From Escherichia coli (lineage in GTDB: Bacteria > Pseudomonadota > Gammaproteobacteria > Enterobacterales > Enterobacteriaceae), in assembly GCF_024298765.1 (NCBI RefSeq), contig NZ_CP101210.1: a DNA stretch of 64,000 nucleotides. One strand, given 5' to 3'. Each line of letters opens with the position of its first letter. The stretch's first letter is position 1. The notes under the pieces were generated by a model. That model was not told the origin of the DNA. It saw only the letters and a list, made by a program, of their open reading frames with translations, and ran no database searches. This document shows positions 9,808 to 34,745 of this stretch, piece after piece. Made by a program: the position numbers and the translations under genes.

Positions 9808-11003
<1,196 letters not shown>

Positions 11004-11598: not shown

Positions 11599-11605
11599 CG
11601 TTGAT

Positions 11606-11640: not shown

Positions 11641-11647
11641 TCCTGCC

Positions 11648-13763: not shown

Positions 13764-13773
13764 CTCTTTCCCC

Positions 13774-14493
13774 TCAGCGGCTCATCAGCACTTCAGCAAT
13801 ATGCATCACTTTGACCGGCTGGCCTTCCCGTTGCAGTCGACCGCCAATGTTCAGCAGGCAGCTAACGTCTGCGCCAATCAAAAATTCCGGCTTTGCGTCC
13901 ATCAGATGTAATACTTTCTCTTTCACCATCTCACCGGATATCTCGGCCATCTTGACCGAGAACGTCCCGCCAAAGCCGCAACAGGTATCCTGATCGGCAA
14001 ACGTCAACAGCTCCAGTCCGCGCACGTTTTTCAGCAGCGTAAGCGGCTCTTCCTTCACTCCCAGTTTGCGGGTCAGGCTACAGGAAGGATGATACACAGC
14101 GCGGCCCTGCAGGCTGGCACCAACGTCCACCACACCCAGTTTGTTGACGATAAAGGAGGTGAGATCCTGCATACGCGCGGAAACTTTCTCAGCACGCAGC
14201 GCCCATTCCGGTTCATCGGCCAGATACGTCGGGTAGCTTTTAACCGCGTAGGTGCAGGAGCCCGCCGGGGAGATAATCGGATCGTCGTTGTCTTCCAGCG
14301 CGGCGATCAGGTTTTTCATCCCGGGGATCGCCTCTTTGATGTAACCGCTGTTGATGGCTGGCTGACCGCAACACCCTTGCTTCTCGGGGAAATTAACGCG
14401 ACAACCCAGTTTTTCCAGCAGCAATACGGAGTCTCGTGCCATCCGTGATTTCAGTGCGTCACCAATACAGGTGACAAAGAAATTTACATTCAC
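13774..14493 (-). CDS. ykgE: LutA/YkgE cysteine-rich (CCG-domain) lactate-utilisation protein A
   Basis: 239 aa, MNVNFFVTCIGDAL..., CCG motifs (QGCCGQP, DTCCGFGG). Order ykgE-F-G as in K-12. Confidence 0.9.
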   Translation of the reverse strand: MNVNFFVTCIGDALKSRMARDSVLLLEKLGCRVNFPEKQGCCGQPAINSGYIKEAIPGMKNLIAALEDNDDPIISPAGSCTYAVKSYPTYLADEPEWALRAEKVSARMQDLTSFIVNKLGVVDVGASLQGRAVYHPSCSLTRKLGVKEEPLTLLKNVRGLELLTFADQDTCCGFGGTFSVKMAEISGEMVKEKVLHLMDAKPEFLIGADVSCLLNIGGRLQREGQPVKVMHIAEVLMSR

Positions 14494-14567
14494 AATAACT
14501 ACTCCATTGCTTCATTTCTGTTTATTGCGCTTGATATCGCGATATCAAACAAATGTTCATTCGTATT

Positions 14568-16265
14568 TCATGCCCAGTTTTTATGTTTGCTGGTTTTACC
14601 AATACCTGGATTCATAGTGTTGGTCGGATCATTTTCCTGATAAAAACGTGCCAAATTTTCCTGCGCTTTATACAGATGGCCGACATTGTGTTCCGCCGGA
14701 TATTGCGCTCCGCGTTGGCGCAGTAATTCCAGCATCTGTTCTTTTAACGCGTGGGCATCTACGCCTTTTTTAACGATATAATCCTGATGGAATACATGGC
14801 ACATAAAATGGCCGTAATAGAGTTTATGCACCAACTGACTGTCAATTTCCGCCGGTAAATGCTCATACCATTCGGTATCATTGCGGCGTAATGCAATATC
14901 CAGCGCGAGAATATCCTCAACCTCGTCAGAATGAACGGCCTGATAACGAATGGCAGCACCCGCGGCGGCAAAACGATGCAGAAACGCCTTACTGCCCTCT
15001 TCCGCGGTACAGGTAAAGAACGCGCCCTCGGCCGATTTAAAATAGTCCGTTAACCATGCCTGGGCTTCGGCCACACCCTCACCGGACATTTTCAACATCA
15101 GATGGTGTTCATAGTTATCGCGCCAGGTCTTCATCCGCGCCGGGAGATGGCTCGGGAACAGATGGCTAAAAGCCTGCATCGCGCGGTCGGTAAAGTGCGG
15201 GCGAAAGATCTTCACCTTCTCAAGTATGGCCTCGGTACGCCCCTTCAGGTTGAAGAAGAACGGCATTTTGTCCGTGCCAAGTTTGTCGATCATCAGGAAG
15301 GTATCTTTGCTGTATTTCTCTGCAATATCATAGATATCGCGGTGCATATACTCCCCAGCAACCGGCAGGTTTGTAAAATTCGCCAGGATGTGGCGGCGAA
15401 TCTCAGTCAGGACATCAGTCTGATTGGTACCGATATAAAAGACCTGCTGGTTCTTCTCGGCTTCAAAGGTATCCAGACGTACGGCAAACACCGCTAACTT
15501 GCCCGCACAGCCAGAGGATTCAAACAGGCGATCCGGGTCAGCGTTGTAACGTGCTGGCGTGTCGGCATTGATGTCCCGCACGCGGCTAACATAGTCGTGA
15601 TCGTGCGCGTGACGCCCGTCATGGTTGACGAGCACGGCTTCAATCGCATTGTTATCCAGCCGGGCAAGGATTTGCTCTGGCGTCTGACCTAGCTCAATGC
15701 CGAGGTGATTGACCAGCTGCAAGCGTCCCTGTTCATCAATACGGGCAAACAGCGACATCTCGGTATAAGCCGGGCCACGCTGGACCAGAGAACCGCCGGA
15801 GTTATTACAGATACCGCCGATAACCGACGCGCCGATGCACGAAGAGCCAATCACCGAATGCGGCTCACGGCCAAACGGCTTCAGCGCCTTTTCCAGCGAA
15901 TACAGCGTGGTGCCCGGATAAGCCAGCACCTGCTTACCCTCATCCAGCACATGCAGACTGTCCAGCCGCAGCGTGCTGATAATGACGATCTCGCGGTCGT
16001 AATCATTACCATTGGGCGTCGAACCCTCAGTCAGGCCAGTGTTCGACGCCTGCATCAGGATTATTTTATCGGCCTCAACGCAGGCGCTAAGGACTTTCCA
16101 GAGTTCAAGCAAAGAGCCGGGGATAACCACCGCCAGAGCATCACCCTGACCCGAGCGAAAACCCTTACGGTAACGCGCAGTTTTTGACGGTTCGGTGAGG
16201 ATATGAGCAGGGCCAACCAATTGGGTAAGAGTTGTCAAAAAGGTCTTATTATCAGTATGTTTCAT
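14568..16265 (-). CDS. FAD-dependent quinone-linked D-lactate dehydrogenase, Dld paralogue
   Basis: Long collinear similarity to K-12 Dld as I recall it (TARYRKGFRSGQGDALAVV.PGSLLELW..., NTGLTEGSTPNGNDYDR, HSVIGSSCIGASVIGGICNNSGGSLVQRGPAYTEMSLFARI). Start uncertain: M17 at 16265 chosen, the track start is 16313. Confidence 0.85.
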   Translation of the reverse strand: MKHTDNKTFLTTLTQLVGPAHILTEPSKTARYRKGFRSGQGDALAVVIPGSLLELWKVLSACVEADKIILMQASNTGLTEGSTPNGNDYDREIVIISTLRLDSLHVLDEGKQVLAYPGTTLYSLEKALKPFGREPHSVIGSSCIGASVIGGICNNSGGSLVQRGPAYTEMSLFARIDEQGRLQLVNHLGIELGQTPEQILARLDNNAIEAVLVNHDGRHAHDHDYVSRVRDINADTPARYNADPDRLFESSGCAGKLAVFAVRLDTFEAEKNQQVFYIGTNQTDVLTEIRRHILANFTNLPVAGEYMHRDIYDIAEKYSKDTFLMIDKLGTDKMPFFFNLKGRTEAILEKVKIFRPHFTDRAMQAFSHLFPSHLPARMKTWRDNYEHHLMLKMSGEGVAEAQAWLTDYFKSAEGAFFTCTAEEGSKAFLHRFAAAGAAIRYQAVHSDEVEDILALDIALRRNDTEWYEHLPAEIDSQLVHKLYYGHFMCHVFHQDYIVKKGVDAHALKEQMLELLRQRGAQYPAEHNVGHLYKAQENLARFYQENDPTNTMNPGIGKTSKHKNWA

Positions 16266-16700
16266 GGAGGGCGGCTCTCCGCTCCTTATATCAGGGCCAG
16301 TGAAAATGGCCATAAGTTCATTTGTACGACAAAACAGAATATTCCCTCAATCAATATCCACATGCAATACCCCATTTTATTTCTTTCGGCACCGCTCACA
16401 TTTTTTAATGAAATTACCACTACCACATAATTCATACTCCGTTCTTTTACTGGATGCCAAAACGCTTATTTCATTTATTGCAAAGACCATTTCATACCTA
16501 TTAATGATTAACTCTAATGGGTATTATTATATTTAGTGGTTATTCATATTTAATAAAAAAATAACATTATTTATACAATTATTAACCTTTGTAACTTTAT
16601 TTCACTGAAGCGATTCAGTTTGCATTTTTTATTTTATTATTAAGGTAGCCTCCTTCCCCCTAAATATAGTTAAGTCTAAAAAAGTAAATCGGGAATTGTA

Positions 16701-18254
16701 ATGCACGAATATTTAATGTTTGCTCTGGCACTCTCTCCTTTGCTGCTGATGGTATTTTTAATACTGAAATTAAAAATGCCCATCCATTATTCCGTACTGA
16801 TCTCTTTGGTATTCACCGCTGCACTATCGGCAATATTCTGGGAAATGCCCACACAGAATCTGAAAGCCGCGATAGGCTATGGTGCACTGAAGGGACTATG
16901 GCCGATCGTAATTGTTATCCTCGGCGCTATCTTCAGTTATAACGTCATGCAGGCGACCAAAGCGCTGGATATTCTGCGCGATATTCTCGCCAGCATTAGC
17001 GAAGATAAGCGTATTCAGGTGCTGCTGATTTCATGGTGTTTTGGTGGATTTCTTGAAGCCGCTGCGGGCTATGGCACGGCGGTCGCTATTCCGATCGGTA
17101 TTCTCATTGCGCTGGGATTCAACCCGTTGAAGGCGGCGATTGCTTCCCTCGTAGCAAATACCGTTCCGACCGCATTTGGCGCGGTTGGAATCCCGGTTTC
17201 TATTCTGGCAGAGCAGGTTAATCTGCCGGTTTATACCTTAGGCGGAACCATTATTTTGCAGCTCGCGCTGTTTAATATCCTGCTGCCGTTTGTGATTGTC
17301 TGCATTATTGGCGGTGGCCTGAAAGCCATTCGCGGCGTATTTCTGATCACGTTGATTTGCGGCATTTCCACGCTGGTTCCGCAATATTTTGTCGCCATCC
17401 ATCTTGGCGCGGAATTACCCGCCTTTGCCGGTAGCCTGGTCAGCCTGTTTGCCGTGGCGATGGTCAGTCGCCTGCGCAAAGGGAAAACCGATCCCGAGTG
17501 GCGCATTGAGGTCAGCCATACCCGCGAAACCACGCCGCGCTCGGCAAAAGTGTTGTTCCGGGTTGGCTCTATTTATCTGTTTATTTTTGTGTTTATCCTG
17601 CTGTGTTCGCCGCTGTTCCCGACAATAAAAGGCGCGGCATCCCAACTGGCTTCGGTGCTGCATTTCACGTTGGCTGACGGCAAAACGATGGCGCTGAAAG
17701 TTGAATGGGCGACCACACCGGGGATGCTGATCATCTTTGCGACCATTATCGGCGGTTTTATTCAGGGAGCGTCCGCACGTGGGATGCTGGAAGTATTTAT
17801 CAAAACGATTTTCCAGCTTAAAAACTCTATCGTCGCAATTATGGCGATCGTCGCGCTGGCCACGGTGATGGATCTCAGCGGGATTATCTCCACGCTGGCC
17901 CAGTCGATTGTCGATCTGACCGGCAGCTCGTACGTCTTCCTCGCCCCGGTGATTGGCGCGCTGGGCACGTTCGTGACCGGCAGCGATACCAACTCGAACA
18001 TTCTGTTCGGCAAGCTGCAAACCATTGCCGCCAGCAAGTTACATATCGATCCTAACTGGCTGGCGGCGGCCAATACCTCTGGCGCTACGGGGGGGAAAAT
18101 GATTTCGCCGCAAAGCATCGCCATCGCAGTTTCTGCCACCAAAATGGACGGTCAGGCCAACCAGATTATGTCTGGCACCATGAAATACTGCTGCGCCTAC
18201 ATTGTGATCCTCGGCCTGAAAGTCGGTCTGTTTTATTACTGGTTTATGGCGTAA
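16701..18254 (+). CDS. L-lactate/glycolate permease family (LctP) transporter
   Basis: 517 aa polytopic membrane protein with LctP-like motifs (GALKGLWPI, FGGFLEAAAGYGTAVAI, TGSDTNSNILFG). Divergent from the dld-like gene across an AT-rich 390-bp region. Confidence 0.85.
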   Translation: MHEYLMFALALSPLLLMVFLILKLKMPIHYSVLISLVFTAALSAIFWEMPTQNLKAAIGYGALKGLWPIVIVILGAIFSYNVMQATKALDILRDILASISEDKRIQVLLISWCFGGFLEAAAGYGTAVAIPIGILIALGFNPLKAAIASLVANTVPTAFGAVGIPVSILAEQVNLPVYTLGGTIILQLALFNILLPFVIVCIIGGGLKAIRGVFLITLICGISTLVPQYFVAIHLGAELPAFAGSLVSLFAVAMVSRLRKGKTDPEWRIEVSHTRETTPRSAKVLFRVGSIYLFIFVFILLCSPLFPTIKGAASQLASVLHFTLADGKTMALKVEWATTPGMLIIFATIIGGFIQGASARGMLEVFIKTIFQLKNSIVAIMAIVALATVMDLSGIISTLAQSIVDLTGSSYVFLAPVIGALGTFVTGSDTNSNILFGKLQTIAASKLHIDPNWLAAANTSGATGGKMISPQSIAIAVSATKMDGQANQIMSGTMKYCCAYIVILGLKVGLFYYWFMA

Positions 18255-18511
18255 ACCATTGTCAACCCCGTCAAATTCGCGGCAATCGAATTTGACGACA
18301 TAGTGACCAAAAAGGTTTACACCGCCCCGGGAACGGAACGAGGCAACAGACTTTACGATTTGTCGGCGCTGACTAAAATAGCGCCGATGTTTCAAATCGA
18401 GGATTGTTGTTATGTTGTTCTGGAAAAAGATGGTGAAGAAGTTCGACGCCTTTTCCGGTGATGCTGCCAACTTACTGATTTAGTGTATGATGGTGTTTTT
18501 GAGGTGCTCCA

Positions 18512-19688: not shown

Positions 19689-20170
19689 TCAAAAACCGCT
19701 GTAGCCAAAGTTACGCTGGCCTGATGCTTTAGTGTCGAGCTTCGTCAAATAATCCAGACGTACCAATAAGCGCTGGTACTGCTCTGGGAAATCAGGCTCG
19801 TTAATATCCAGGATGTAACGTCCATTAGCAGGGAAATGAACTAATCCCTGGTGATCTTCCAGTTCCAACCCTAAGGCACTGTACCAGGCTCCGGTAATTA
19901 ACCCTCTCAGTGTGTCAGAGCGCTCATAGTTTCCCAGGTGGTAATAGGCGTCTTTGTTAAAAAAAGGCAGACGTGATAATGACATTTAAAGGACTGCGTA
20001 TATTCTTTCGCCCAGATAATACAAACCGCCGTTGCGTAGGTGCGTTTGCCTTGTTGTTTTTTACTGTGTTGATCTGCATTAATTTTCGCATTCAGCGAGT
20101 TACGGAAACGAGATATCTCTCCGGGGATCAGGTTAGGGAAACAGGTAATGATATCCCCGTTGTCAATCAC
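19689..20170 (-). pseudogene. YagK/YfjJ-family (inovirus Gp2-type) gene, frameshifted
   Basis: Two overlapping track ORFs (19907..20170, 19689..19985) read as one protein: ...CIIWAKEYTQSFKCHYHVCLFL / NKDAYYHLGNYERSDTLRGLITGAWYSALGLE.... This parallels the intact paralogue at 35283..35846 (YYWVMEYTPDKGLHIHFIGYLDG). The frame change falls in an A7/T7 run at 19959-19965. Confidence 0.6.
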
Positions 20171-20260
20171 AGGAGGGTAATGGAGATCCCCCCGTATTGC
20201 TGTTATTCTGGAAGTGTTTTTAATATTCGTATTGATAGTTCTCAGAGATTGGATTTGCCC

Positions 20261-21166
20261 CTATATTTCCAGACACCTGTTATCACTTAACCCATTACTG
20301 GCCCGCTGCCGTAGATATTCCCGTGGCGAGCGATAACCCAGTGCACTATGCGGGTGCCATTCGTTATAATGCTCGAACGCCTCTGCAAGGTTCTTTGCTG
20401 CCGTTAACCCGTCTGGTTTAGGCATGATACTGATGTAGTCACGCTTTATCGTTTTCACGAAGCTCTCTGCTATGCCGTTACTCTCCGGACTCTGCACCGC
20501 CGTGTTCTTCGGTTCAAGCCCTAATATCCGGGCAAACTGCCGTGTTTCATTAGCCCGGTAGCATGAACCATTATCCGTCAGCCACTCTACTGGAGACGCC
20601 GGAAGCTCGTTGCCGAAGCGGCGTTCCACCGCTCCTGGCATGACGTCCTGTACTGTTTCACTGTCGAAGCCGCCCGTAGTGACTGCCCAGTGCAGTGCCT
20701 CACGGTCACAGCAGTCCAGCGCGAACGTGACTCGCAGTTTTTCTCCGTTATCACAGCGGAACTCGAACCCGTCAGAGCACCATCGTTGATTGCTTTCTTT
20801 CACGGCCACTTTGCCAGTATGTGCCCGTTTCGATGGCGGTACAGCGGTTTTTCGCTCAAGCAACAGCGCATTCTGGCGCATGATCCGGTAAACACGTTTG
20901 GCATTGATCGCAGGCATACCATCAAGTTCGGCCTGTCTGCGAAGCAGCGCCCATACCCGACGATAACCATACGTGGGCAGCTCTCCGATAACATGGTGTA
21001 TACGGAGAAGCACATCCGTATCATCTGAGTGACGGCTGCGGCGACCATCTTTCCAGTCATCGGTTCGTCTGAGAATTACGTGCAACTGCGCACGCGACAC
21101 CCGGAGACAACGGCTGACTAAGCTTACTCCCCATCCCCGGGCAATAAGGGCGCGTGCGCTATCCAC
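20261..21166 (-). CDS. insD: IS2 OrfB (InsD) integrase-like transposase
   Basis: 301 aa, recognised IS2 InsD sequence ([29 protein letters not shown]...). Confidence 0.95.
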
Positions 21167-23463: not shown

Positions 23464-24918
23464 ATGATGGAGAGCATTAATAATCAAGTGCAGTCGGTAC
23501 GCCAGTTGCTGGCCATTCCCCAACTGGCCATCCCAAGCTATCAGCGACCTTACCGCTGGGGCTCCAAGAATATCTCGGATCTCTTTACCGATTTGGCAAC
23601 CCATCAGGACAAGAGCGCCTACCGGCTGGGCTCGGTGGTGTTTCATCAGCACACCGATAGTGAGCAGGGCGAAATGCTTGATATCGTCGATGGTCAGCAA
23701 CGCACCCTGACCCTGATGTTGACCGTCAAGGCGCTGATCGAGGTGCTGGATAACGAAAATCGCAGTGGCAAAGAGAAGAGTATCCGGTTTCAACGTCAGG
23801 ATCTGCGTGAGCAATTGCAGGTCTTGCGTGGACCTATCGATGCGTTTATGCAGCGCCAGCGCTTCCCCAGCCGGGATTCGGAGTTCAACCTCAGACGTAA
23901 CTATCTGGAGTTGCGTCGGCTGGTGGCCCGCCCTGAGTTTGACGAGCAGCAAATTGACTTTCTGCTCAACCGCTGTCAGGTGGTCTGCTTTGTACTGCAG
24001 GATATCTCGGAGGCGTTCCAGTTCTTCGATTCGCAAAATGCCCGGGGGCGCGATCTGGCTCCTCACGATCTGCTCAAGGCATTTCACCTGCGCGAGTTTG
24101 CCGGTCATGAGGCCAATCTCAAGGCCGAGGCGGTCGCCCATTGGGAGCGCCTGCCAAGCGACGAGCTGGCCAATCTGTTCGCCCTCTATCTCTATCGGGT
24201 ACGCCAGTGGGCCGAGGGCAAGTCGGCCCGCTACTTTGGCAAGGGGGAGGTGGATCTCTTCAAGGGGGTCAACCTAGATCGGGTAGGGCATTATCCTTAC
24301 GTGGAGTCGCTGCGCATCGCCCACCACTTTGTCGATGAGTACAACAGCCAGTACCAGCGCAAGATTGACGGCCAGTACATGACGTTTCCCTTTCATCTCG
24401 ACCAGATGATCATCAATGGTCGGCGCTTTTTCGAGATGGCCGAGTACTACCAGACGCGGGTGGCCGCCATCGTGGCCGAGGAGTCTGATTCCGGCAAGGC
24501 GCAATCTGCCACCCTGCTCGGCGAAACGCTGACACCGATGGCCAGCAAGGTGCTATCGACCCTGGGCAGCTACGAGCGTCGCCACCGCACCGGGGATCGT
24601 TATGTGCGGGCCATGTTCGACTGCGCCCTGATCTTCTATATCGACAAGTTCGGCAGCCAAGGGCTGTCACTGGCCATCGAGAAGTGCTTTATCTGGGCCT
24701 ATCGCTGCCGCATCCGCCAGCAGGTAGTGCAGTTGGCAACCATGGATAACTATGTGCTGGAGCACAATCTGATCCGTGCCATTCGTGATGCTCGTCTGCC
24801 GGGAGATCTGCACGGCTTCCCTTTGCCTAGCATGAGCAGTCGAGAGAACAAGAACAATCGCAATGGTGCCGAAGATGAGCTGGTCGGGCTGTTTCGGGAG
24901 ATGAAATATTATGAATGA
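23464..24918 (+). CDS. DUF262 (ParB/GmrS-like NTPase) domain protein without a recognisable nuclease domain
   Basis: 484 aa. [69 protein letters not shown] at 23456-23461. 8-nt overlap with the next gene. Confidence 0.8.
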
Positions 24919-26953
24919 TGCAGGCGTTCGCCCCTTTTCCATTCGTGCACTGCTTGAAGATCGCGCCCGCTATCTGGTGCCCATGTACCAGCGCAACTAT
25001 GCCTGGGGTGAGGGAGAGATCACCCAGCTGCTGCAGGATGTGCTGGATTATCAGCAAAAATTGGTCAGTGGTAAGGGGCCGCAAACCTACTATATCGGCA
25101 CCCTGGTGGTGTTTGCCCGGGACGATGGCAGTTTCGAGGTAATCGATGGCCAGCAGCGCTTTACTACCCTCTCTCTGCTGGCCAATTGGCTCAAACATCA
25201 CGCGATAGATTCGGTGGATATGAGCTGGTATCAGACCATCAACCTCGCTTTTGAGAGTCGCCCGATATCGAGCCATACCTTCGAGCGCTTATGGCAGGGG
25301 GTTGCCCCCGACGATTTGCGGGGGAGTACCTTCAATGAAGGTTTGGTGAACGGTTTTGAGCTGATTGGCAAGGCAATGGCGGAGCTTGGTTTGGTAGGGG
25401 CTAAACTGACGGCCTTTTGCGACTACCTCTTCAAGCATGTGCAGATCTCTCGTATCGAAGTACCCAAGGATACCGATCTCAATCACTTCTTCGAGGCGAT
25501 GAACAATCGCGGCGAGCAGTTGGAAAAGCATGAAGTGATCAAGGCGCGGCTGATGGAGACGCTGAACCAGATACCCGAGGAAGAGCATCGTCGCCAAAGT
25601 ATTCATATCCTGACCCGGGTATGGGATGCCTGCGCCAATATGGAGCGCTATATCCAGTACGGCTTTACCCCGCAAGAGCGCCACCGTCTGTTTGGTGAGA
25701 GCGACTGGGGTCAGTTTGTGCCCCGTGATTTTGCCCATCTGCTTGATCTGCTAGGATCCCCAAACACGGCCGACGCTGCCGATAAAAGCCGTGCAGCTGC
25801 CGGTAGCCAAGGGCGCACCTTGTTGGCCATTTTGCAGGATGACAAGCTTGATGGTGAGCAGACGGTGGAGGAGGAGAGCGCAGGCTCCGAGCGCTTTAAC
25901 AGCGTCATCAACTTCTCCAACTTCTTGCTCCATGTGCTGCGACTCGTGAGCCGCGACCCGGGTAATACGGAGGGGGTGCCGCTTGATGATAAACAACTGG
26001 TCGATCAGTTTGAGCTGCGAGTGATAAGGCAACCGGATCCAGTAGCGGCAGTTCAGCGTTTTATCTATGGCCTGTTAAAGAGCAAGTATCTGTTTGATCA
26101 GTTCATCATCAAGCGCGAGTTTGCCGATGGCAAGGATAGTTGGAGTCTGAAGCGGCTGCACTGGTATTCGGAAAAGAGCGTCAGTTACATCAATACCTTT
26201 GACAAGGATGAAAATGAGAATGGTTTCTCTGGTGTTAACCGGCGGGTCCTGATGTTGCTGTCGGCGTTTCATGTGTCGACCCCGACCCTGGTTTACAAAC
26301 ATTGGCTGAATGGTGCACTGAGATATCTGTTCGACAATTGTCACCCTGATCAACCGGTGGATGCCGGGGCTTATCTGTCCTATCTGGAGAGTCAGGCTCG
26401 CCGCTTTGTCTTCCAGCGCTTTTTAGCGCCTGGTGAAGGGGCTTCCTATTACCAGATGCTCTACCTTGATAACGCCCTGTTGCCCGCCATCAATGTGGAT
26501 GAGAGTTGGCACAAGGTGATTACATCCAAACTTCGCTTCGGTCATATCGAGAACAACTTTGTCTTCAACTTCCTCGACTATCTGCTGTGGGTACGAGATC
26601 GGAATAGCGACAAAGTTGCTGGCTCCTTTGAGTTCACTTTCCGCAGCTCGGTGGAGCACTTCTCACCCCAGCATCCGATGGATGGCTATAAACCGGTTGA
26701 GCAGAGTGCACTCCATTCGTTTGGCAACCTTTGCCTTATCAGCCACAGCAAGAACTCGCGCTTGAGTAACTTCCAGCCGCAACAGAAGCAGGAGCACTTT
26801 GAAGCAAGCCTTGCCAATAACCAGACTGATAGTCTTAAATTGCTTGCTATGATTCGGCTGATGAAAGATAAAGGTCGTTGGCTGGAAGATGAGATAGCTG
26901 TGCATCAACAAGATATGTTGCAGGTCTTACTATCCAATCAAATTCAGCAATAA
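24911..26953 (+). CDS. DUF262-DUF1524 fusion (GmrSD/BrxU/SspE-like type IV restriction enzyme family)
   Basis: 680 aa. N-terminal [59 protein letters not shown]-terminal His-Me-like [10 protein letters not shown]...[17 protein letters not shown]. Confidence 0.85.
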
Positions 26954-27023
26954 CGGATTGAATCTGTTGGTGATGCTGCCAACTTACTGATTTAGTGTAT
27001 GATGGTGTTTTTGAGGTGCTCCA

Positions 27024-27299
27024 GTGGCTTCTGTTTCTATCAGCTGTCCCTCCTGTTCAGCTACTGACGGGGTGGTGCGTAACGGCAAAAGCACTGCCGG
27101 ACATCAGCGCTATCTCTGCTCTCATTGCCGTAAAACATGGCAACTACAGTTCACTTACACCGCCTCTCAGCCCGGTACGCACCAGAAAATCATTGATATG
27201 GCCATGAATGGCGTTGGATGCCGGGCAACCGCCCGCATTATGGGCGTTGGCCTCAACACGATTTTCCGCCATTTAAAAAACTCAGGCCGCAGTCGGTAA
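27024..27299 (+). CDS. insA: IS1 InsA (copy B)
   Basis: 91 aa, near-identical to copy A. Confidence 0.95.
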
Positions 27300-27721
27300 C
27301 CTCGCGCATACAGCCGGGCAGTGACGTCATCGTCTGCGCTGAAATGGACGAACAGTGGGGCTACGTAGGTGCTAAATCACGTCAGCGCTGGCTGTTTTAC
27401 GCGTATGACAGGATACGGAGGACGGTTGTGGCGCACGTCTTCGGTGAACGCACTCTGGCCACACTGGAGCGTCTTCTGAGCCTGCTGTCGGCCTTTGAGG
27501 TCGTGGTATGGATGACGGATGGCTGGCCGCTTTATGAATCACGCCTGAAGGGAGAACTGCACGTTATCAGCAAGCGATTTACGCAGCGCATTGAGCAGCA
27601 TAACCTGAATCTGAGGCAGCATCTGGCAAGGCTGGGCAGGAAGTCACTGTCGTTCTCAAAATCGGTGGAGCTGCATGACAAAGTCATCGGGCATTATCTG
27701 AACATAAAACACTATCAGTAA
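27218..27721 (+). CDS. insB: IS1 InsB' frame (copy B)
   Basis: 167-aa frame, IS1 isoform. Confidence 0.9.
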
Positions 27722-27736
27722 GTTGGAGTCATTACC

Positions 27737-27964
27737 CAGCTCATCGCGCAGTGAGCCAAAATCCGCATCTGAAGCACGGTCAAAAAGGTAATCCAGTTTG
27801 CGATTTACGTCGCTCAGCTGGTTGGTAACTATTTTCAACCCGGACTCCAGATCACCTGGGCCAGCTTCAAGGCAGCGCCGCAGATACTCTGACCGATTAC
27901 CACCTGAAACCAGGTCTATATAGGCCAAAAGTTCATCTGATACTTTTGCGGTTATTGTTGGCAT
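27737..27964 (-). pseudogene. Ribbon-helix-helix protein gene (relaxosome-accessory/CopG-like), 3' end cut by IS1 copy B
   Basis: MPTITAKVSDELLAYIDLVSGGNRSEYLRRCLEAGPGDLESGLKIV... shows the RHH pattern (beta strand ITAKVSDEL, then RSEYLRRCL helix). Beyond codon 76 the track ORF (27656..27964) reads into IS1. Confidence 0.55.
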
Positions 27965-28145
27965 CCAGTCCTCACTTTGTGCATTTTTTAAACGAAAAAA
28001 GGGTGTCTAATACGGTGAAATCATAGTATTACCAAAGTAATAAATAAAAATTGTTTTAAATCAGTAGGTTAGATTAGATTTGTAATGCCTGGGTAATACC
28101 GCAGCATGGCTAAATTTGGTTTTTTTTCTTTTAAATCAGTTGGAT

Positions 28146-28163
28146 AGCGTGATTTATCACGCT
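28146..28163. repeat. Inverted repeat agcgtgat-tt-atcacgct (oriT-like IR)
   Basis: Perfect 8-bp arms, 2-nt spacer, followed by gcgttaggtgtatagc. Confidence 0.8.
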
Positions 28164-28265
28164 GCGTTAGGTGTATAGCAGGTTAAGGGATAAAAAATCA
28201 TCTTTTTTTGGTAGGGCGATCTCCGTAGGTTAAGGGTCATTTGGCTAAAAAGCGTCCTATTCTTT

Positions 28266-28289
28266 GATGGTCATGCTTGCATGACCATC
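28266..28289. repeat. Perfect 11-bp-arm inverted repeat gatggtcatgc-tt-gcatgaccatc
   Basis: Direct reading; lies just upstream of the iteron array. Confidence 0.85.
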
Positions 28290-28302
28290 TGAGCAACCAA
28301 AA

Positions 28303-28448
28303 ACTACAGATAAACTACAGATAAACTACAAAAAACGTTTTGCCTTAGTATTGGAAGACTACAAATAGACTACAATAAAACTACAAAGAAACTACAAAAA
28401 ACATGACAGACTACAAATAGACTACAAGAATACTACAGATAAACTACA
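28303..28448 (+). repeat. Iteron array: 11 direct copies of ACTACA on an 11-bp register (blocks of 3 + 4 + 4)
   Basis: ACTACA starts at 28303, 28314, 28325, 28358, 28369, 28380, 28391, 28410, 28421, 28432 and 28443. Spacings are 11, 11, 33, 11, 11, 11, 19, 11, 11, 11. Confidence 0.9.
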
Positions 28449-28456
28449 AAACTCGA

Positions 28457-28485
28457 TTGACCCCTTCTTACGAGTGTTGTAGAGT
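28457..28485 (+). promoter_or_regulatory. Candidate sigma70 promoter of the 128-aa gene, abutting the iterons
   Basis: TTGACC (28457-28462), 17-bp spacer, TAGAGT (28480-28485). GGAGGGGG RBS at 28501-28508, ATG at 28510. Confidence 0.45.
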
Positions 28486-28509
28486 CATTTTCATACAACG
28501 GAGGGGGTT

Positions 28510-28896
28510 ATGAATAAACCAGCAGATCTGAAACCCCGCAACTTATCGGCTGCTGTCAGATTGCGCCTAAATGAAATCGAGAACTGGCTGGACAGAGGGC
28601 TAACGCGGCATGAAATTGCTGAAATCCTCGACAGCGAATACAGCTTTTCGGTAACAGCCAAAGGGCTTGAGATGGCACTGTATAGAACGCGGCAAAACCG
28701 AAAAAATGTATTGCACAATACACATGATAAGAGTAGCGCGAAGGGTGCAGCGGAAAGTGTATTGCACAATACACAACCGTCTGAGCCTGAAGCGCAGGAA
28801 AGTGAAAAAGCAGAGAGTCCCGGCATTATTGATAAAGAATTCTTCAATAAAATCGGTGAGAATTTCGACCCTAAGAAGTTCAACAAAAAATTCTGA
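28510..28896 (+). CDS. Small HTH DNA-binding protein (StbA/ParB-adaptor-like position), function unknown
   Basis: 128 aa. Probable HTH LTRHEIAEILDSEYSFSVTAKGLEMALYR, acidic/low-complexity tail. Strong RBS, and iterons immediately upstream. Confidence 0.6.
   Translation: MNKPADLKPRNLSAAVRLRLNEIENWLDRGLTRHEIAEILDSEYSFSVTAKGLEMALYRTRQNRKNVLHNTHDKSSAKGAAESVLHNTQPSEPEAQESEKAESPGIIDKEFFNKIGENFDPKKFNKKF
28707..28773. repeat. Two copies, 51 bp apart, of the 16-bp near-palindrome TGTATTG-CA-CAATACA inside the 128-aa gene
   Basis: 28707-28722 and 28758-28773. The wider direct repeat is aa(a/g)tgtattgcacaatacaca, which encodes the NVLHNTH / SVLHNTQ protein repeat. Confidence 0.85.
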
Positions 28897-28904
28897 GGTG
28901 ATTT

Positions 28905-29091
28905 ATGAAAGTAGCGGTAATTAATTACAGTGGCAGTGTTCGTAAAACCTTAATTTCATCTTACCTGTTAGCTCCGCGCCTGACTGGTGCAAAGTTCTAT
29001 GCGGTAGAGACTATCAACCAGTCTGCTTCCGATCTGGGTATTGAAAATGTGACCAGTTTTAAAGGTGACGACTTCTCACGTTTGATTGAGG
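28905..29091 (+). pseudogene. N-terminal stub of a ParA/StbB-like partition ATPase, truncated at an IS1 end
   Basis: MKVAVINYSGSVRKTLISSYLLAPRL... resembles the deviant Walker A start of small ParA/StbB proteins, but reads GSVRKT where GKT is expected. The frame ends where the IS1 terminal repeat begins (29092). Confidence 0.45.
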
Positions 29092-29122
29092 GGTAATGAC
29101 TCCAACTTACTGGTAGTGTTTT
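29092..29122 (-). mobile_element. Solo IS1 terminal inverted repeat (about 31 bp remnant)
   Basis: ggtaatgactccaacttactggtagtgtttt compared with the reverse complement of the IS1 right end, ggtaatgactccaacttattgatagtgtttt (2 mismatches). No IS1 sequence follows. Confidence 0.75.
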
Positions 29123-29173
29123 AGCGAAGTTAAGTGACACAATAGTTTAATCTGGAGGAATTAATGAAGAGTT

Positions 29174-32113
29174 ATGAGTAATTTTAATTTTCTAACAGAC
29201 ATCAGCCCTGAACTCGCTCAATTTGGTAAAAGTGCCGAGCTGTATTACCATGATGATAAGCAGGTAGCACTAGTGAAACTTAGGTGTTTTACTGAAGTAG
29301 TCGTTGGGGAAATTTATTCACGTTTATCGCTAACCCCACCTGTTCGTGATGATTTATATAATCGACTGCGCAGCTACGAATTCAAGGACGTTGTCAGTGA
29401 TAAGGGAATCTGGGCCAAATTAGATGTATTGCGACATAAAGGTAACAAAGCCGCCCACTCTAGCAATGGTTCAGACGAGATTTCCCTCAATGAAACACTC
29501 TGGTTAATCAAAGAAGCTTATTTAGTCGCCCGTTGGTATGCTCAAGCTATTCTCAATAAGCCTATCACTCCGCCAGAGTTTGTTGATCCGGTAAAACCTA
29601 TCGATCATACATCTCGCTTAGAAGCAGAGTTAGAACGGCAACGTCAAGAACTCAATAAACGAGAGGCTGAATTAAAGACCCAGCTTGCTGATAATAGTGA
29701 TAAATATCAACAACAGACGAGTGAGCTAATAGCTCAACTAGACGAAAAAAACGACACACTTTCCAATGTAAAAAAAGAGCAAGCACTATTACAGATTGAA
29801 CTTGAACAAAAACAAAAAGATCTAGTCGCTTCACAACAAGCCTTCTTTGATTACAGGACGCGTGAAGAGTTTAAACAAGCTAGTATTTCATCAGCTTCAA
29901 GCTTTGATCTTGATATGGAAGTGACGCGCCGAAATATTGATATATTTGATTGCTTTGAAGGAGTAAGTTTAACTAAAGGTCAAAACCAAATAGTTAAGCA
30001 AATAAATGAGTTTCTAACCGATACCAAACAAAACGTATTTTTACTTAATGGTTATGCAGGTACAGGTAAAACATTTATAACTAAAGGAATTACTCAGTAC
30101 CTAGAAAGAATTGGTCGTGAATTCGCTATTATGGCCCCGACGGGGAAAGCCGCGAAAGTGATATCAGACAAAACAATGCAACCTGCCAGCACTATTCACC
30201 GCGTGATATACAATTACGACAACGTGAAAGAGTACAAAGTTGACGGTGTGGAAGGGTCTGAAACTTATCGTTGCTATGCTGACCTTAAAGTCAATGTAGA
30301 TACTGCCGAAGCTGTTTATATAATTGATGAAGCGTCAATGGTTTCTGACAGATATTCCGATGGTGAGTTTTTTCGTTTTGGGAGCGGATATTTATTAAAA
30401 GACTTGCTCAAGTACATAAATATTGACCACAACGATCATAATAAGAAAGTTATTTTTATTGGTGATAATGCACAGTTGCCACCTGTTGGAATGAATACGT
30501 CACCAGCGCTAGATGCCAGTTACCTTAAAGAAAATTATCAAGTCGCTGTGGCTTCAGGGCACTTGACTGAAGTTGTTCGTCAAAAAGGTGATAGTGGTGT
30601 TTTGAACAATGCTGCCATGTTGCGTGACGGTTTAGAGCAAAATCTTTTCAATAAACTGAAATTTGAAGTTAATGATCATGATGTATTTAATTTGTCCTCG
30701 GAAAATCTACTTAGCACTTATCTAGACTCATGTGATAGAAAAGTTAGCCGTACAGGAGAAAGTATTATTATTGCTTCTTCAAACCGACAAGTAGCTGAGT
30801 ATAACCGTTTGGTTAGAGAGTACTTCTTTACTGGTCAACAGCAAATGGTCGCGGGAGATAAAGTCATTTCGGTAGCAAATCACTATCGAGCAGACGCTTG
30901 TATTACCAATGGTGAATTTGGAATGATCAAGGAAGTACTATCTCCTCATTCTGAGTTGATTAGTGTTGACATTAGCGTCAAAGGTGACACTGGTGACATG
31001 GTTAAGCGAAAAGTAAATCTGAGTTTTAGGGATGTGATTCTAGGCTTTCGCAACGACTACGGTGAACCATTCTTCTTTGAAGCCAAAATTGTAGAAAACC
31101 TACTTTACAATGATCAGCCGACCTTATCGTCAGATGAGCACAAAGCACTCTATGTTCACTTTTTAAATCGACACCCAGAACTGAGACGTAAAGGTAATGA
31201 ACAAAAGCTTAGAATTGCATTATTGCAAGATCCTTATTTCAATGCTTTTAAACTTAAGTTTGGTTATTCCATTACTGGACACAAAGCACAGGGTAGCGAA
31301 TGGAAAACTGTTTTCTTACAGTGTCAAACACACCAAAAAGCCTTAACTAAAGATTACTTCCGCTGGTTATACACCGCTATAACGAGAACTTCTGGCATCC
31401 TGTATGTAATGAATCCACCTCAGTTGCGCTTAGGAGATGGAATGAAAATAGCAGGAGCGTACCAACCCAAAGCAGTAAACCTAGACAATTCTGCTCCTGA
31501 AGGCGTTGAGGTTGTGCGACCAAGTACCGAAGCAACGAACTCAGTAGCCACAGCGAAGTTTGATTTTCAGACTGACATCCCGCAACTTAAAAAGCTATAC
31601 CAACTTGTTGATGCATGTATTGAAGGTACAGGGATTACTGTAGTGGATGTCCTTCATTATAACTATCAAGATCGTTACATCTTGCAGCGCGGGAATGAGC
31701 AGGCTTCGATAAGTTTCAATTACAAGGGTAACTGGAAAGTGTCTGGCGTAAAGAGCATTACTCAAGATGGGTTCGATGTTGAACTCATGGCTTTGCTTGG
31801 TCAATTAGAAGGTACTTTGCTCGATGTACCTGAGCCTTCAAAGGATACTCAGTTCCATTTTTCAGAGCCATTCTTAGAAGAGTTTTATCTAAATGTAATG
31901 GATCAAATCAACAGTGTTGGAGCTGATATAAGCAAAATTGAATCTCGTTCATTTTGTGAAAGATATGCATTTGTTAAAGGCAATGAGTTGGCGGTAATTG
32001 AGTTTTGGTACAACAAGTCTAGCCAGTTTACTAAAGTTCAACCTATGCCTCAGCTTAGTAATTCCACAAGGCTCATTGACGAAATAATATGTCAAATAGG
32101 TGTGCTTCTATGA
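29174..32113 (+). CDS. Multidomain SF1B (RecD/Dda/TraA-like) helicase: DUF4145-like N-domain, coiled coil, helicase core, two tandem C-terminal repeats
   Basis: 979 aa.
- N-terminus ...KLDVLRHKGNKAAHS (DUF4145-like).
- aa ~145-235 heptad-rich (LEAELERQRQELNKREAELKTQL...).
- Walker A GYAGTGKT (nt 30050-30073), APTGKAA, Walker B YIIDEASM, IGDNAQLPPVG, TEVVRQ, C-terminal GYSITGHKAQGSEW and YTAITRT.
- aa 794-891 and 892-979 are related repeats. Confidence 0.85.
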   Translation: MSNFNFLTDISPELAQFGKSAELYYHDDKQVALVKLRCFTEVVVGEIYSRLSLTPPVRDDLYNRLRSYEFKDVVSDKGIWAKLDVLRHKGNKAAHSSNGSDEISLNETLWLIKEAYLVARWYAQAILNKPITPPEFVDPVKPIDHTSRLEAELERQRQELNKREAELKTQLADNSDKYQQQTSELIAQLDEKNDTLSNVKKEQALLQIELEQKQKDLVASQQAFFDYRTREEFKQASISSASSFDLDMEVTRRNIDIFDCFEGVSLTKGQNQIVKQINEFLTDTKQNVFLLNGYAGTGKTFITKGITQYLERIGREFAIMAPTGKAAKVISDKTMQPASTIHRVIYNYDNVKEYKVDGVEGSETYRCYADLKVNVDTAEAVYIIDEASMVSDRYSDGEFFRFGSGYLLKDLLKYINIDHNDHNKKVIFIGDNAQLPPVGMNTSPALDASYLKENYQVAVASGHLTEVVRQKGDSGVLNNAAMLRDGLEQNLFNKLKFEVNDHDVFNLSSENLLSTYLDSCDRKVSRTGESIIIASSNRQVAEYNRLVREYFFTGQQQMVAGDKVISVANHYRADACITNGEFGMIKEVLSPHSELISVDISVKGDTGDMVKRKVNLSFRDVILGFRNDYGEPFFFEAKIVENLLYNDQPTLSSDEHKALYVHFLNRHPELRRKGNEQKLRIALLQDPYFNAFKLKFGYSITGHKAQGSEWKTVFLQCQTHQKALTKDYFRWLYTAITRTSGILYVMNPPQLRLGDGMKIAGAYQPKAVNLDNSAPEGVEVVRPSTEATNSVATAKFDFQTDIPQLKKLYQLVDACIEGTGITVVDVLHYNYQDRYILQRGNEQASISFNYKGNWKVSGVKSITQDGFDVELMALLGQLEGTLLDVPEPSKDTQFHFSEPFLEEFYLNVMDQINSVGADISKIESRSFCERYAFVKGNELAVIEFWYNKSSQFTKVQPMPQLSNSTRLIDEIICQIGVLL

Positions 32114-33534
32114 ATGAGCCAGCTAATCGTACAGTAAATAATTTGAGAAAGAGCGGAGACCTGCAAGGGGCTTGGGAGTTTGGTTTTCAAGCGTTGCAGG
32201 CAGCTCCCCAAGATACTTACTTGAAAGGTGCTTTATTTTGGGTGTGTTATGAGTTTCTTAAGCACCAGCTTGAAAATCTAAATAAGCGAGCGAGTTCTTC
32301 AAACAACTATCGTCCTACTGATTTTGAATTTGAGCAAATAGAGAACTTGCTGCAAACCATAGTAAATTTAGATATTGCTACTGGCGGCCTAGAGTACAAA
32401 ATGCTGCTGGTTCAGTTTAAGAAGAGTTTGGAATGGTTTCCAACCTTGATTCACCTTGTGCTTCGACATCAAACTGTACTATTTGATGATGAGGCTAAAA
32501 CACCTTTTCAAGCTGAAAAAGGTGAAGTGCCAAGTTTGATGCTCTCAACAGCACGCCAAGTGGCGAGTGCATGGCTTAGAGCACGAGAGTATTGGCATCT
32601 AGATCTTAACCAAGTGATGGCATTTATTAACCAAACACGCGAGCAAGCCTCTGACACTAAACATATGATGTGGCTTGATTACGACCAAGCGAAGTGCCTT
32701 GTTGTTGCGGGCCAATACGATCAGGCTCGCGAACTCATTCTACCCATTTTAAGAAAGAAGCAAAAAGAGTCTTGGGCTTGGGGAGCGTTGGCTGCTACTT
32801 ATTCAAAACAAGATCAGCGTTTAGCAATGAAGTTTTTTGCTAGGGGAATAGTATCCGCACATGACGTTACTTTTAGTTTACGTTTATTACAGGGAATTAT
32901 TCCTTTATTACTTGCAAATCAACAGCAAGCTGAAGCCTCAATGTGCCTAAAAACGGCTATTGCGGCTTATCAAGCCCATGGGTGGAAGCTAAAGCAAGAG
33001 CTAGAACAGCTATCTATGCAGGCTTGGTATGATTCTGGTGTCGATGAGAAGCAACTGAGTCCTTTTTTAAACTCTATTTCTCACGACGCTTTAAATTACT
33101 TGCATGGGCCGATGGAGAAGGTTGTTGCTATCGTAGAGAATATCCATAAATCCGGTAAAGGCTTTCAAGTATTCGTAAATAAGTCGACATCACTATCAGT
33201 TCGCATGGGGGTTCATAAAGGTAAGCAGAAACCTCAGGCTGGTGACTATGTCGAGCTATCCGTAGCGAGTGTTGATGGAAACAAAGAAGTAGTAGCTTCC
33301 TCATCGTCCAAGCAAGTAGATATGGCTGATGTTTCGTATGTAGAGGGTACGCTTCGAATAGCACCCAAAGGCTTCGGATTTGTCGAGGATACTTTTGTTC
33401 CTCCCTTTGTTATAGGTAATTTAAAAAATGAAACAAAAGTCAGAGCACTCCGTATCATGAGTTGGGACAAATCTAAAGCTCGCCACAACTGGAAAGCGAT
33501 TAAGTTAACGGAACTAAATTTTAATGAAGACTAA
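32110..33534 (+). CDS. Helical-repeat (TPR-like) protein with C-terminal cold-shock/OB-like module; partner of the helicase
   Basis: Start taken at ATG 32110 (MNEPANR), forming an ATGA overlap with the helicase stop; the track start is 32089. The alpha-helical N-terminal 330 aa includes TPR-like segments (DYDQAKCLVVAGQYDQARELILPIL, WAWGALAATYSKQDQRLAMKFFARGI). C-terminus has ...KSGKGFQVFV... and ...LRIAPKGFGFVEDTFVPPFVI... (RNP1-like KGFGF). Confidence 0.75.
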   Translation: MNEPANRTVNNLRKSGDLQGAWEFGFQALQAAPQDTYLKGALFWVCYEFLKHQLENLNKRASSSNNYRPTDFEFEQIENLLQTIVNLDIATGGLEYKMLLVQFKKSLEWFPTLIHLVLRHQTVLFDDEAKTPFQAEKGEVPSLMLSTARQVASAWLRAREYWHLDLNQVMAFINQTREQASDTKHMMWLDYDQAKCLVVAGQYDQARELILPILRKKQKESWAWGALAATYSKQDQRLAMKFFARGIVSAHDVTFSLRLLQGIIPLLLANQQQAEASMCLKTAIAAYQAHGWKLKQELEQLSMQAWYDSGVDEKQLSPFLNSISHDALNYLHGPMEKVVAIVENIHKSGKGFQVFVNKSTSLSVRMGVHKGKQKPQAGDYVELSVASVDGNKEVVASSSSKQVDMADVSYVEGTLRIAPKGFGFVEDTFVPPFVIGNLKNETKVRALRIMSWDKSKARHNWKAIKLTELNFNED

Positions 33535-33591
33535 GTCACTTTCCGGCGAAATCGAGTTAGGACAGGCTCAAGAATTAGCCGAGGTCGAATA

Positions 33592-33688
33592 ATGGCAACC
33601 CGAGTAGAAATGATTATCGAAACGCTCAAGGCGAACCCCGACAAGAAGTTTACTGCTCGGGACTTAGCCAAAGAATTTGTGCTTCGAT
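33592..33688 (+). pseudogene. First 32 codons of a third operon gene (winged-helix/HARE-HTH-like N-terminus), truncated by IS903
   Basis: MATRVEMIIETLKANPDKKFTARDLAKEFVLR|IS903. GAGG RBS upstream. The pattern resembles N-terminal HTH modules of McrB-like and other restriction-associated ATPases (weak, short). Confidence 0.5.
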
Positions 33689-34745
33689 GGCTTTGTTGAA
33701 TAAATCGAACTTTTGCTGAGTTGAAGGATCAGATCACGCATCTTCCCGACAACGCAGACCGTTCCGTGGCAAAGCAAAAGTTCAAAATCACCAACTGGCC
33801 CACCTACAATAAAGCCCTCATCAACCGTGGCTCCATAACTTTCTGGCTGGATGATGAAGCTATTCAGGCCTGGTATGAGTCAGCAACACCTTCTTCACGA
33901 GGCAGACCTCAGCGCTATTCTGACCTTGCCATCACGACTGTGCTGGTCATTAAACGCGTATTCAGGCTGACCCTGCGCGCTGCGCAGGGCTTTATTGATT
34001 CCATTTTTTCTCTGATGAACGTTCCGCTACGCTGCCCGGATTACAGCTGTGTCAGCAGGCGGGCAAAGTCGGTTAATGTCAGTTTCAAAACGCCCACCCG
34101 GGGTGAAATCGCACATCTGGTGATTGATTCCACCGGGCTGAAGGTCTTCGGTGAAGGCGAGTGGAAAGTCAAAAAGCATGGCCAGGAACGCCGCCGTATC
34201 TGGCGTAAGCTGCATCTCGCCGTTGACAGTAAAACACATGAAATCATCTGTGCAGACCTGTCGCTGAACAACGTTACGGACTCAGAGGCCTTCCCCGGGT
34301 TAATCCGGCAAACCCACCGGAAAATCAGGTCAGCCGCCGCCGATGGCGCTTACGATACCCGGCTATGTCACGATGAACTGCGGCGTAAGAAAATCAGCGC
34401 GCTTATCCCTCCCCGAAAAGGTGCGGGTTACTGGCCCGGTGAATATGCAGACCGTAACCGTGCAGTGGCTAATCAGCGAATGACCGGGAGTAATGCGCGG
34501 TGGAAATGGACAACAGATTACAACCGTCGCTCGATAGCGGAAACGGCGATGTACCGGGTAAAACAGCTGTTCGGGGGGGCACTGACGCTGCGTGACTACG
34601 ATGGTCAGGTTGCGGAGGCTATGGCCCTGGTACGAGCGCTGAACAAAATGACGAAAGCAGGTATACCTGAAAGCGTGCGTATTGCCTGAAAACACAACCC
34701 GCTACGGGGGAGACTTACCCGAAATCTGATTTATTCAACAAAGCC
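33689..34745 (+). mobile_element. IS903 (IS5 family), complete (1057 bp)
   Basis: 18-bp inverted repeats ggctttgttgaataaatc (33689-33706) and gatttattcaacaaagcc (34728-34745). 9-bp flanks tgcttcgat and gttgccaaa do not match. Confidence 0.95.
33766..34689 (+). CDS. IS903 transposase (307 aa, GTG start)
   Basis: VAKQKFKITNWPTYNKALINRGSITFWLDDEAIQAWY...; recognised IS903/IS102 transposase. The track ORF starts earlier, at 33721. Confidence 0.9.
   Translation: MAKQKFKITNWPTYNKALINRGSITFWLDDEAIQAWYESATPSSRGRPQRYSDLAITTVLVIKRVFRLTLRAAQGFIDSIFSLMNVPLRCPDYSCVSRRAKSVNVSFKTPTRGEIAHLVIDSTGLKVFGEGEWKVKKHGQERRRIWRKLHLAVDSKTHEIICADLSLNNVTDSEAFPGLIRQTHRKIRSAAADGAYDTRLCHDELRRKKISALIPPRKGAGYWPGEYADRNRAVANQRMTGSNARWKWTTDYNRRSIAETAMYRVKQLFGGALTLRDYDGQVAEAMALVRALNKMTKAGIPESVRIA

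Follow-up and report, generated by a model that had tools for sequence, protein, structure and literature searches.

Among the described systems that resemble the locus treated here, a 1.36-kb segment (positions 27737-29091) within a 64-kb stretch of an Escherichia coli chromosome (the window), are the origins of transfer (oriT) and adjoining stability genes of conjugative plasmids. In the IncN plasmid pKM101, the traK-stbA intergenic region alone was efficiently mobilised in trans (PMC12288468), and IncR plasmids, which carry an oriT of the R46 family, are mobilised by helpers (PMC12310702, PMC12607884). In the IncW plasmid R388, StbA binds direct repeats beside its gene, lowers transfer about 50-fold and controls plasmid positioning; stable inheritance needs StbA, not StbB, but StbB is required for transfer when StbA is present, such that stbA without stbB abolishes conjugation, and DNA on the stb side of the nick is the first to reach the recipient (PMC3098194). 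Relaxase-less genomic islands with an oriT and with defence genes close to it (iOriTs) have been described as well; they form large, ancient integrative families, mostly with integrative-specific oriT types (bioRxiv 10.64898/2026.01.13.699239).

Judged from its sequence, the segment 27737-29091 derives from a conjugative plasmid of the IncN type (R46/pKM101 family). This fragment spans the border between the DNA-processing genes and the leading region and comprises codons 1-76 of traK, a complete oriT with iterons, stbA and codons 1-62 of stbB. We consider it very probable that this decayed piece of an IncN-family plasmid (R46/pKM101/pCU1-like, MOBF11) is a passenger in the present chromosome. 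The element is a known one, decayed in this copy, its direct relatives being fragments bounded by insertion sequences (IS) on IncR and IncFIA(HI1) plasmids.

Relationship to IncN and IncW plasmids

A megablast search of PLSDB (72,556 plasmids) with 27737-29091 as query returned 1,884 matching records, 602 of which cover at least 80% of the segment. The best matches are full-length, show 98-99% identity and carry annotated traK and stbA genes. Since full-length matches of this quality occur on hundreds of plasmids, the features of the segment do not result from chance. A preliminary description of this DNA had proposed a fossil plasmid oriT-stability module between IS1 ends, and the strong plasmid matches, the NCBIfam models and the protein comparisons with R46 all bear this out. 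Every feature named in it is present at, or a few bases from, the position given there.

The order and strands of the genes are those of R46, and at the DNA level the segment aligns with this plasmid at 86% identity from traK to the central palindrome and at 89% over the 3' part of stbA and stbB. The TraK and StbB remnants are 91% and 95% identical to their R46 counterparts, respectively. StbA is 50% identical to R46 StbA, its N-terminal domain being far less conserved than the highly identical C-terminal part. Also shared with R46, pKM101 and pCU1, and located at the same places, are the AGGTTAAGG repeats, the palindrome and an array of 11-bp iterons. In contrast to these IncN plasmids, traK and stbB are cut short in the segment, and stbC, traJ and traI are absent.

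The likeness to R46 is interrupted in two places. The spacer between traK and the nick hairpin has visibly diverged, and neither the iterons nor the first ~65 codons of stbA can be aligned with R46 at the DNA level: 11 iterons of the ACTACA type stand here where R46 has 13 of the TACATCA/TACAACA type. As the iteron type and the N-terminal domain of StbA differ together, presumed binding site and domain were apparently exchanged as one block. The swapped region corresponds to 28285-28700 in the window and to 20300-20700 in R46. Outside it, identity is still 86-95% for the nick core, StbB and the C-terminus of StbA.

The same traits are found in pE17EC0112-2 (CP088481), an intact, self-transmissible plasmid of 40.9 kb with a MOBF relaxase, a coupling protein, an MPF_T mating-pair system and the full stbABC set; similar 41-kb plasmids occur in E. 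coli. This plasmid matches the segment on both sides of the nick and shares with it the spacer type, the hairpin, the nick core, the palindrome, the ACTAC iterons and the N-terminal domain of StbA, with identities of 95% for TraK, 81% for StbA and 97% for the StbB stub. It differs in having 9 iterons (3+3+3), one extra VLHNTQ repeat in StbA and complete transfer genes. The deviations from R46 are thus traits of a lineage and not signs of decay, because pE17EC0112-2 has them too.

Other candidates for an intact parent were discarded. Several plasmids of 38-51 kb proved to be IncR plasmids with IS903B-flanked fragments of the module. OW967994 is conjugative, but its traK-to-hairpin spacer is R46-like; its combination of an R46-like left half with a window-like right half indicates that the oriT region is mosaic around the nick.

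The preliminary description had likened the segment to the trwA-oriT-stbAB region of R388. This comparison holds for the architecture, since in R388, too, a ribbon-helix-helix (RHH) accessory gene reads one way and the nick, the StbA-bound direct repeats, stbA and stbB follow the other way. Moreover, the N-terminus of R388 StbB is 48% identical to the stub, and the nick motifs share the core ...T/ATAGC (slash, nick). Membership in the IncW family, however, was rejected in favour of IncN: R388 StbA shares no more than about 24% of its residues (E = 0.002) and, at about 19 bits, does not pass the StbA model of the IncN type, the R388 oriT gives no significant DNA match to the segment, and the comparison of R388 TrwA with the TraK fragment is not significant either. 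The R388 repeats are 9-bp units (TTGCATCAT) in two sets of five.

The oriT region, stbA and the truncated genes

The IncN-type oriT takes up the whole traK-stbA intergenic region (27965-28509), the plus strand being the transferred one. It is exactly 545 bp long and has a G+C content of 35%, compared to 49% for the window, which agrees in length and composition with the AT-rich, repeat-packed region noticed before. The fragment sufficient for mobilisation of pKM101, which we located from the primers in PMC12288468, corresponds to R46 19996-20505, and 27965-28509 is its uninterrupted, end-to-end counterpart. By this alignment, the oriT is structurally whole. An Rfam search at E <= 1 yielded a single chance eukaryotic hit.

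The position of the nick was taken from the pKM101 TraI oligonucleotides (Table S1 of PMC9868005), among which the substrate oriT57 consists of TGTGATAGCGTGATTTATCGCGCTGCGTTAGGTGT before and ATAGCAGGTTAAGGGATAAAAA after the nick (PMC9868005). In the window, the predicted nic site lies on the plus strand between 28174 and 28175, with GCGTTAGGTGT on its 5' side and ATAGCAGGTTAAGGGATAAAAA on its 3' side. The stretch 28140-28196 matches oriT57 at 54 of the 57 bases; all three differences are upstream, and bases -11 to +22 around the nick are identical to pKM101. The putative TraI recognition hairpin AGCGTGAT-TT-ATCACGCT (28146-28163, plus strand), 11 nt 5' of the nick, is placed as in the pKM101 oligonucleotides oriT35 and oriT57 and has a folding energy of -7 kcal/mol (z = -2.8). 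It is perfect owing to one of the three differences from oriT57, at a position where R46 has a mismatch. An alignment of five variants of the IncN type shows no change in the core between GATAGCG and AAATCATC, both included, save for one hairpin base (A or G), and the flanks vary.

Upstream of the hairpin, two 22-nt direct repeats on the plus strand (28051-28072 and 28126-28147; 86% identical) are candidate TraK binding sites. The direct repeats AGGTTAAGGG (28180-28189 and 28227-28236, plus strand) agree in 10 of 10 positions, and both are also found in R46. They are followed by the perfect palindrome GATGGTCATGC-TT-GCATGACCATC (28266-28289), whose 11-nt arms are 100% complementary (z = -4.8). 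Its core TCATGC-TT-GCATGA is kept in R46 (20293-20314), whereas the outer arms read ATGG/CCAT here and GTAT/ATAC there. That these bases differ and yet stay complementary suggests a constrained hairpin or a dimer binding site.

The iteron array (28303-28453, plus strand) consists of eleven 11-bp units of the ACTACA type in blocks of 3+4+4, spaced by 11, 11, 33, 11, 11, 11, 19, 11, 11 and 11 bp. More than half of the plus-strand ACTACA hexamers in the whole window (11 of 21) fall inside these 151 bp. The iterons are presumed StbA binding sites, as the counterpart of the stbDR repeats of R388 (PMC3098194). The inverted repeats, both pairs of direct repeats and the iterons had all been placed at about these positions in the preliminary description.

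The gene stbA (28510-28896, plus strand) is intact and encodes an IncN-type StbA of 128 aa, the small rightward DNA-binding gene that had been anticipated in front of an ATPase stub. The protein covers positions 1-123 of the 123 of the NCBIfam profile NF041290 (StbA_2) and scores 205.7 bits against a cut-off of 100, compared to 217.6 bits for R46 StbA and 19.2 bits for R388 StbA. A likely promoter, TTGACC-17-TAGAGT (28457-28485, plus strand), was found by consensus scan only; its spacer holds an inverted iteron core, TTGTAG. In the chromosome, stbA is probably still expressed, from this promoter, and autoregulated. Within the gene, a 22-nt direct repeat (28703-28724 and 28754-28775, 95% identical) was observed. 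Both copies code for the peptide VLHNT(H/Q) and include an inverted repeat, TGTATTG-CA-CAATACA. Three copies of this peptide are present in the StbA proteins of both R46 and pE17EC0112-2. The repeat could be a protein motif in a linker or a DNA site inside stbA.

Both end genes are cut by IS1 sequences. On the left, a complete IS1 of 768 bp (26969-27736, plus strand; bounded by a left inverted repeat at 26969 and a right one that ends at 27736) abuts the plasmid fragment at codon 76 of traK and follows, on its other side, the 3' end of a DUF262 gene. As these flanks have no common target duplication, the IS1 marks a recombinant joint and not a simple insertion. On the right, a 32-bp stub of the right end of IS1 in inverted orientation (29092-29123, minus strand) joins the fragment to a candidate defence gene pair, PDC-M16A/B. 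The stub deviates from the IS1 end at a single base (31 of 32 identical), and similarity ceases beyond. The complete IS1 on the left and the inverted solo end on the right were thus both found where they had been indicated.

The traK remnant (27737-27964, minus strand) consists of codons 1-76 of 138 and retains the N-terminal RHH part of this IncN relaxosome accessory protein, in accordance with the leftward RHH-type relaxosome-accessory gene, cut by IS1, of the preliminary description. It is 100% identical to the corresponding part of the full-length TraK of the Klebsiella plasmid NZ_CP083069. In place of the remaining residues of the 138-aa protein, the frame (27656-27964, minus strand) runs 26 codons into IS1, which results in an open reading frame of 102 aa that includes the RHH part. 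A shortened DNA-binding TraK could still be made from it.

The stbB remnant (28905-29091, plus strand) holds codons 1-62 of 238. It aligns with positions 1-61 of the 233 of NCBIfam NF041292 and reaches 78 bits, far below the cut-off of 200 for the full-length family. Its P-loop reads GSVRKT (G13R), as compared to GSVGKT in R46 and in the closer intact relative pE17EC0112-2. Because this relative has the regular motif, the change is specific to the truncated stub. The stub, which had been recognised as that of a ParA/StbB-like ATPase with a damaged Walker A motif, is the remnant of a gene for a ParA/Soj/MinD-like ATPase and, by its truncation and P-loop, non-functional.

Distribution and likely history

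The related fragments on IncR and IncFIA(HI1) plasmids of Klebsiella, Enterobacter and E. coli are likewise bounded by IS elements and are 97.5-99% identical to the segment. Those of the IncFIA(HI1) type share its stbB/IS1 joint, whereas the IS903B-flanked IncR copies end earlier, at 28979. These copies reside on replicating plasmids, where the oriT mobilises the whole circle and StbA can serve stability, whereas the copy described here is chromosomal. In PLSDB, 803 carriers of the iteron-stbA block are classified as mobilizable and 341 as conjugative. The oriT-stbA stretch was found in 442 of 5,426 complete E. coli genomes, with 454 occurrences on plasmids and 38 on chromosomes. As the same fragment occurs on more than 1,000 resistance plasmids, its presence in an E. 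coli chromosome beside a defence pair is ordinary.

Shared joints allow a sequence of events to be proposed. The joint of stbB codon 62 with IS1 recurs without a single base change in IncFIA(HI1) plasmids of Klebsiella and Enterobacter that have a longer IS1 and an intact traK; in NZ_CP083069 and CP123603, this longer IS1 sits at the same insertion point. One such plasmid represents an intermediate that keeps an intact traJ but has lost traI. The E. coli plasmids p2EC1-3 and CP114341, as well as other chromosomes, have the same 32-bp IS1 stub joined to PDC-M16A/B. At PDC-M16 loci without the module, homology starts only at 29126 of the window, just past the stub. First, IS1 would have inserted into stbB at codon 62. 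Second, a later deletion would have left 32 bp of this IS1 fused to PDC-M16A/B. Third, another IS1 would have cut traK at codon 76. Finally, the resulting 7.8-kb unit may have been carried between plasmids and chromosomal islands through recombination, either homologous or mediated by IS elements.

This unit (26969-34745) is composed of IS1, oriT, stbA, PDC-M16A/B and IS903B, with the latter (33689-34745, plus strand) as its right edge. It recurs with 98.9% identity in the THO-010 chromosome, within an integrase-bearing island next to clpA. The PDC-M16A junction was detected in 39 E. coli genomes, on 23 chromosomes and 16 plasmids as assigned by record length. In the chromosome of strain 30EVA2, the unit was observed near hemB, in an IS26-bounded tet(A) resistance region. 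There, IS26 replaces everything to the left of 28191; the nick is lost, and the iterons, stbA, the stbB stub and PDC-M16 are kept. Across copies, the left edge lies at 27737, 27887 or 27925 (all three IS1), at 27962 (IS903B) or at 28191 (IS26). The only stretch kept in every module copy examined, plasmid and chromosomal, is that with the iterons and stbA (28191-28979).

Passenger or working element

On plasmids, the module would have two uses. By analogy with R388, iteron-bound StbA would position plasmid copies for stable inheritance without an ATPase partner, and the oriT would allow mobilisation by an IncN-type helper. Stability combined with mobilisability would explain why the module is found on more than 1,000 plasmids of the IncR/IncFIA(HI1) type. 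In the chromosome, this scrap would simply have come along with the PDC-M16 pair. No relaxase, coupling protein, replication or mating-pore gene is annotated in window positions 1-51,000 and the 21 kb beyond the left end of the window; for the first three, this agrees with what had been noticed before.

Some points weigh against this interpretation. The 170 bp between traK and the hairpin as well as the iterons differ from R46/pKM101, so that the classical helpers need not be able to use this oriT, although it does match plasmids of the pE17EC0112-2 type. The proposed order of the IS events derives from joints that several copies have in common and is undated. Plasmid origin is certain only for the oriT-stbA part; the 7.8-kb unit may have moved from plasmid to chromosome or in the opposite direction.

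It is unlikely that the chromosomal copy still works, be it as an oriT-only hitcher for the defence system or through StbA and its iterons interfering with incoming plasmids. Even in a passenger, nicking in trans is plausible, since the oriT is structurally complete and there are self-transmissible plasmids whose oriT is of the same type: an IncN-type TraI, together with TraK and TraJ, could probably nick the plus strand at the predicted site. Transfer would then lead rightwards through stbA, the stbB remnant, PDC-M16A/B, IS903B, tRNA-Thr and proA, in a manner similar to that of an Hfr (high frequency of recombination) strain, and PDC-M16A/B would head the chromosomal DNA on its way out. Were use of the oriT from the chromosome to be shown, this would add one more route by which a defence locus could be exported in the Hfr manner; for other oriT families, oriT-only elements in chromosomes with defence genes close by have already been published.

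A working and selected oriT-only hitcher (iOriT), with which IncN-like helpers carry the PDC-M16 pair and its flanks to new hosts, seems slightly less likely still. Several observations are consistent with it: the oriT is complete and does not differ in its nick core from a proven substrate, E. coli has cognate plasmids that are self-transmissible, the defence pair would be on the leading side, 1 kb away from the nick, and the unit occurs in 23 chromosomes, in at least three different contexts, as well as on 16 plasmids. Furthermore, oriented oriT-only islands with defence genes near the oriT are a described class (bioRxiv 10.64898/2026.01.13.699239), which the locus resembles in having a chromosomal oriT with defence genes nearby but without relaxase or mating-pore genes. 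It differs from this class, however, in that a plasmid-type oriT is embedded in an IS-bounded scrap of a decayed island, and apparently no excision module is linked to it. An integrase gene, which may belong to the same island, is located ~26 kb to the left of the fragment, and the island is broken up by many IS elements.

Other observations speak against such a hitcher. The bounds formed by IS1, IS26 and IS903B and the left edge that varies by copy point to movement driven by IS elements, and the chromosomal copy of 30EVA2 has no nick and yet kept stbA and the cargo. Linear Hfr-like transfer provides no second oriT at which a circle could be closed, so inheritance of the cargo would require homology on both sides, and a naive recipient would lack homology between nick and cargo. 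In addition, stbB is missing here, and in R388 stbA without stbB abolishes conjugation (PMC3098194). Two plasmids of the strain were examined, one conjugative, IncP-1-like and 52 kb long, the other of the IncX3 type and carrying blaOXA-181 as well as qnrS1; a MOBF helper relaxase was sought in these two plasmids and not found, both having relaxases of the MOBP type. Nothing indicates that the chromosomal oriT is used or selected, and the proposal that it mobilises the neighbouring defence cargo is not supported in the form in which it was made.

Distinctly less probable again is an interference function, in which chromosomal StbA or an iteron sink would disturb the partition or transfer of incoming IncN- or IncR-type plasmids, a kind of plasmid interference that would fit a defence island. 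It could draw on the intact stbA with its plausible promoter, on the retention of 28191-28979 alone in all copies examined and on the ~50-fold reduction of transfer and the control of positioning by R388 StbA (PMC3098194). The retention of stbA is, however, equally well explained by its position between the cargo and the IS elements that erode the left side, and the copies, which are 98-100% identical, are too similar for a test of purifying selection.

The notion that the small genes are an unrelated pair, for example a toxin and its antitoxin, and the repeats a replication origin or a chance AT-rich region has next to no probability, and the toxin-antitoxin reading is refuted: the TraK fragment does match a MazE-type antitoxin model weakly (22.5 bits, E = 1e-4) and Pfam gives nothing significant for the three small proteins, but this score is far below the cut-off of 65, involves the RHH strand-helix only and is similar for full-length R46 TraK (20.1 bits), R46 encodes TraK, StbA and StbB in the same order, with identities of 91%, 50% and 95%, and its DNA aligns with the segment, the nick region matches the pKM101 substrate, a replication initiator gene was not found nearby, and a Pfam and NCBIfam search of the small proteins matched no toxin family. 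The assignment of the RHH and helix-turn-helix proteins to toxin-antitoxin or other unrelated families, which the preliminary description had named as a possible objection, was thus checked and did not materialise.

The practical value of a decayed IncN passenger lies in annotation: besides stbA and the remnants of traK and stbB, labels can be given to an oriT of the IncN type and to its nick, predicted to lie between 28174 and 28175. The fragment also marks the neighbouring PDC-M16 pair as plasmid-borne cargo that has landed several times in chromosomal islands, and it illustrates on a small scale how scraps with oriT and stbA are maintained on resistance plasmids that are not conjugative.

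The PDC-M16A/PDC-M16B candidate defence pair (29174-33534, plus strand) travels with the fragment. PDC-M16A (979 aa) combines an N-terminal region similar to type I restriction endonucleases with a RecD2-like SF1B helicase, and PDC-M16B is a tetratricopeptide repeat protein of 474 aa. The pair was also seen without the oriT-stbA stub on three plasmids, beside a homologue of DNA polymerase III theta. An origin from a P1-like phage-plasmid, suspected from this adjacent theta homologue, was not borne out at the one locus examined.

Positions 26000-31000 show 100% identity to the chromosome of E. coli strain 2020CK-00188 (NZ_ABACVG020000001.1). The fragment and its cargo sit in an IS-riddled accessory region of the chromosome that ends at tRNA-Thr next to proA and whose other contents include a type I restriction system, a pair of DUF262 genes and a cluster for lactate utilisation. 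The two DUF262 genes overlap (23467-26953; 483 and 680 aa), match the PADLOC models HEC-06 and Orf5 and the N-terminal model of SspE, and may form a paired GmrSD/SspE-like nuclease module to the left of IS1. The lactate-utilisation cluster (11000-18500), with lutABC-like genes, dld and an L-lactate permease gene, lies between ISKpn26 and IS1 and adjoins a truncated gluconate permease gene.

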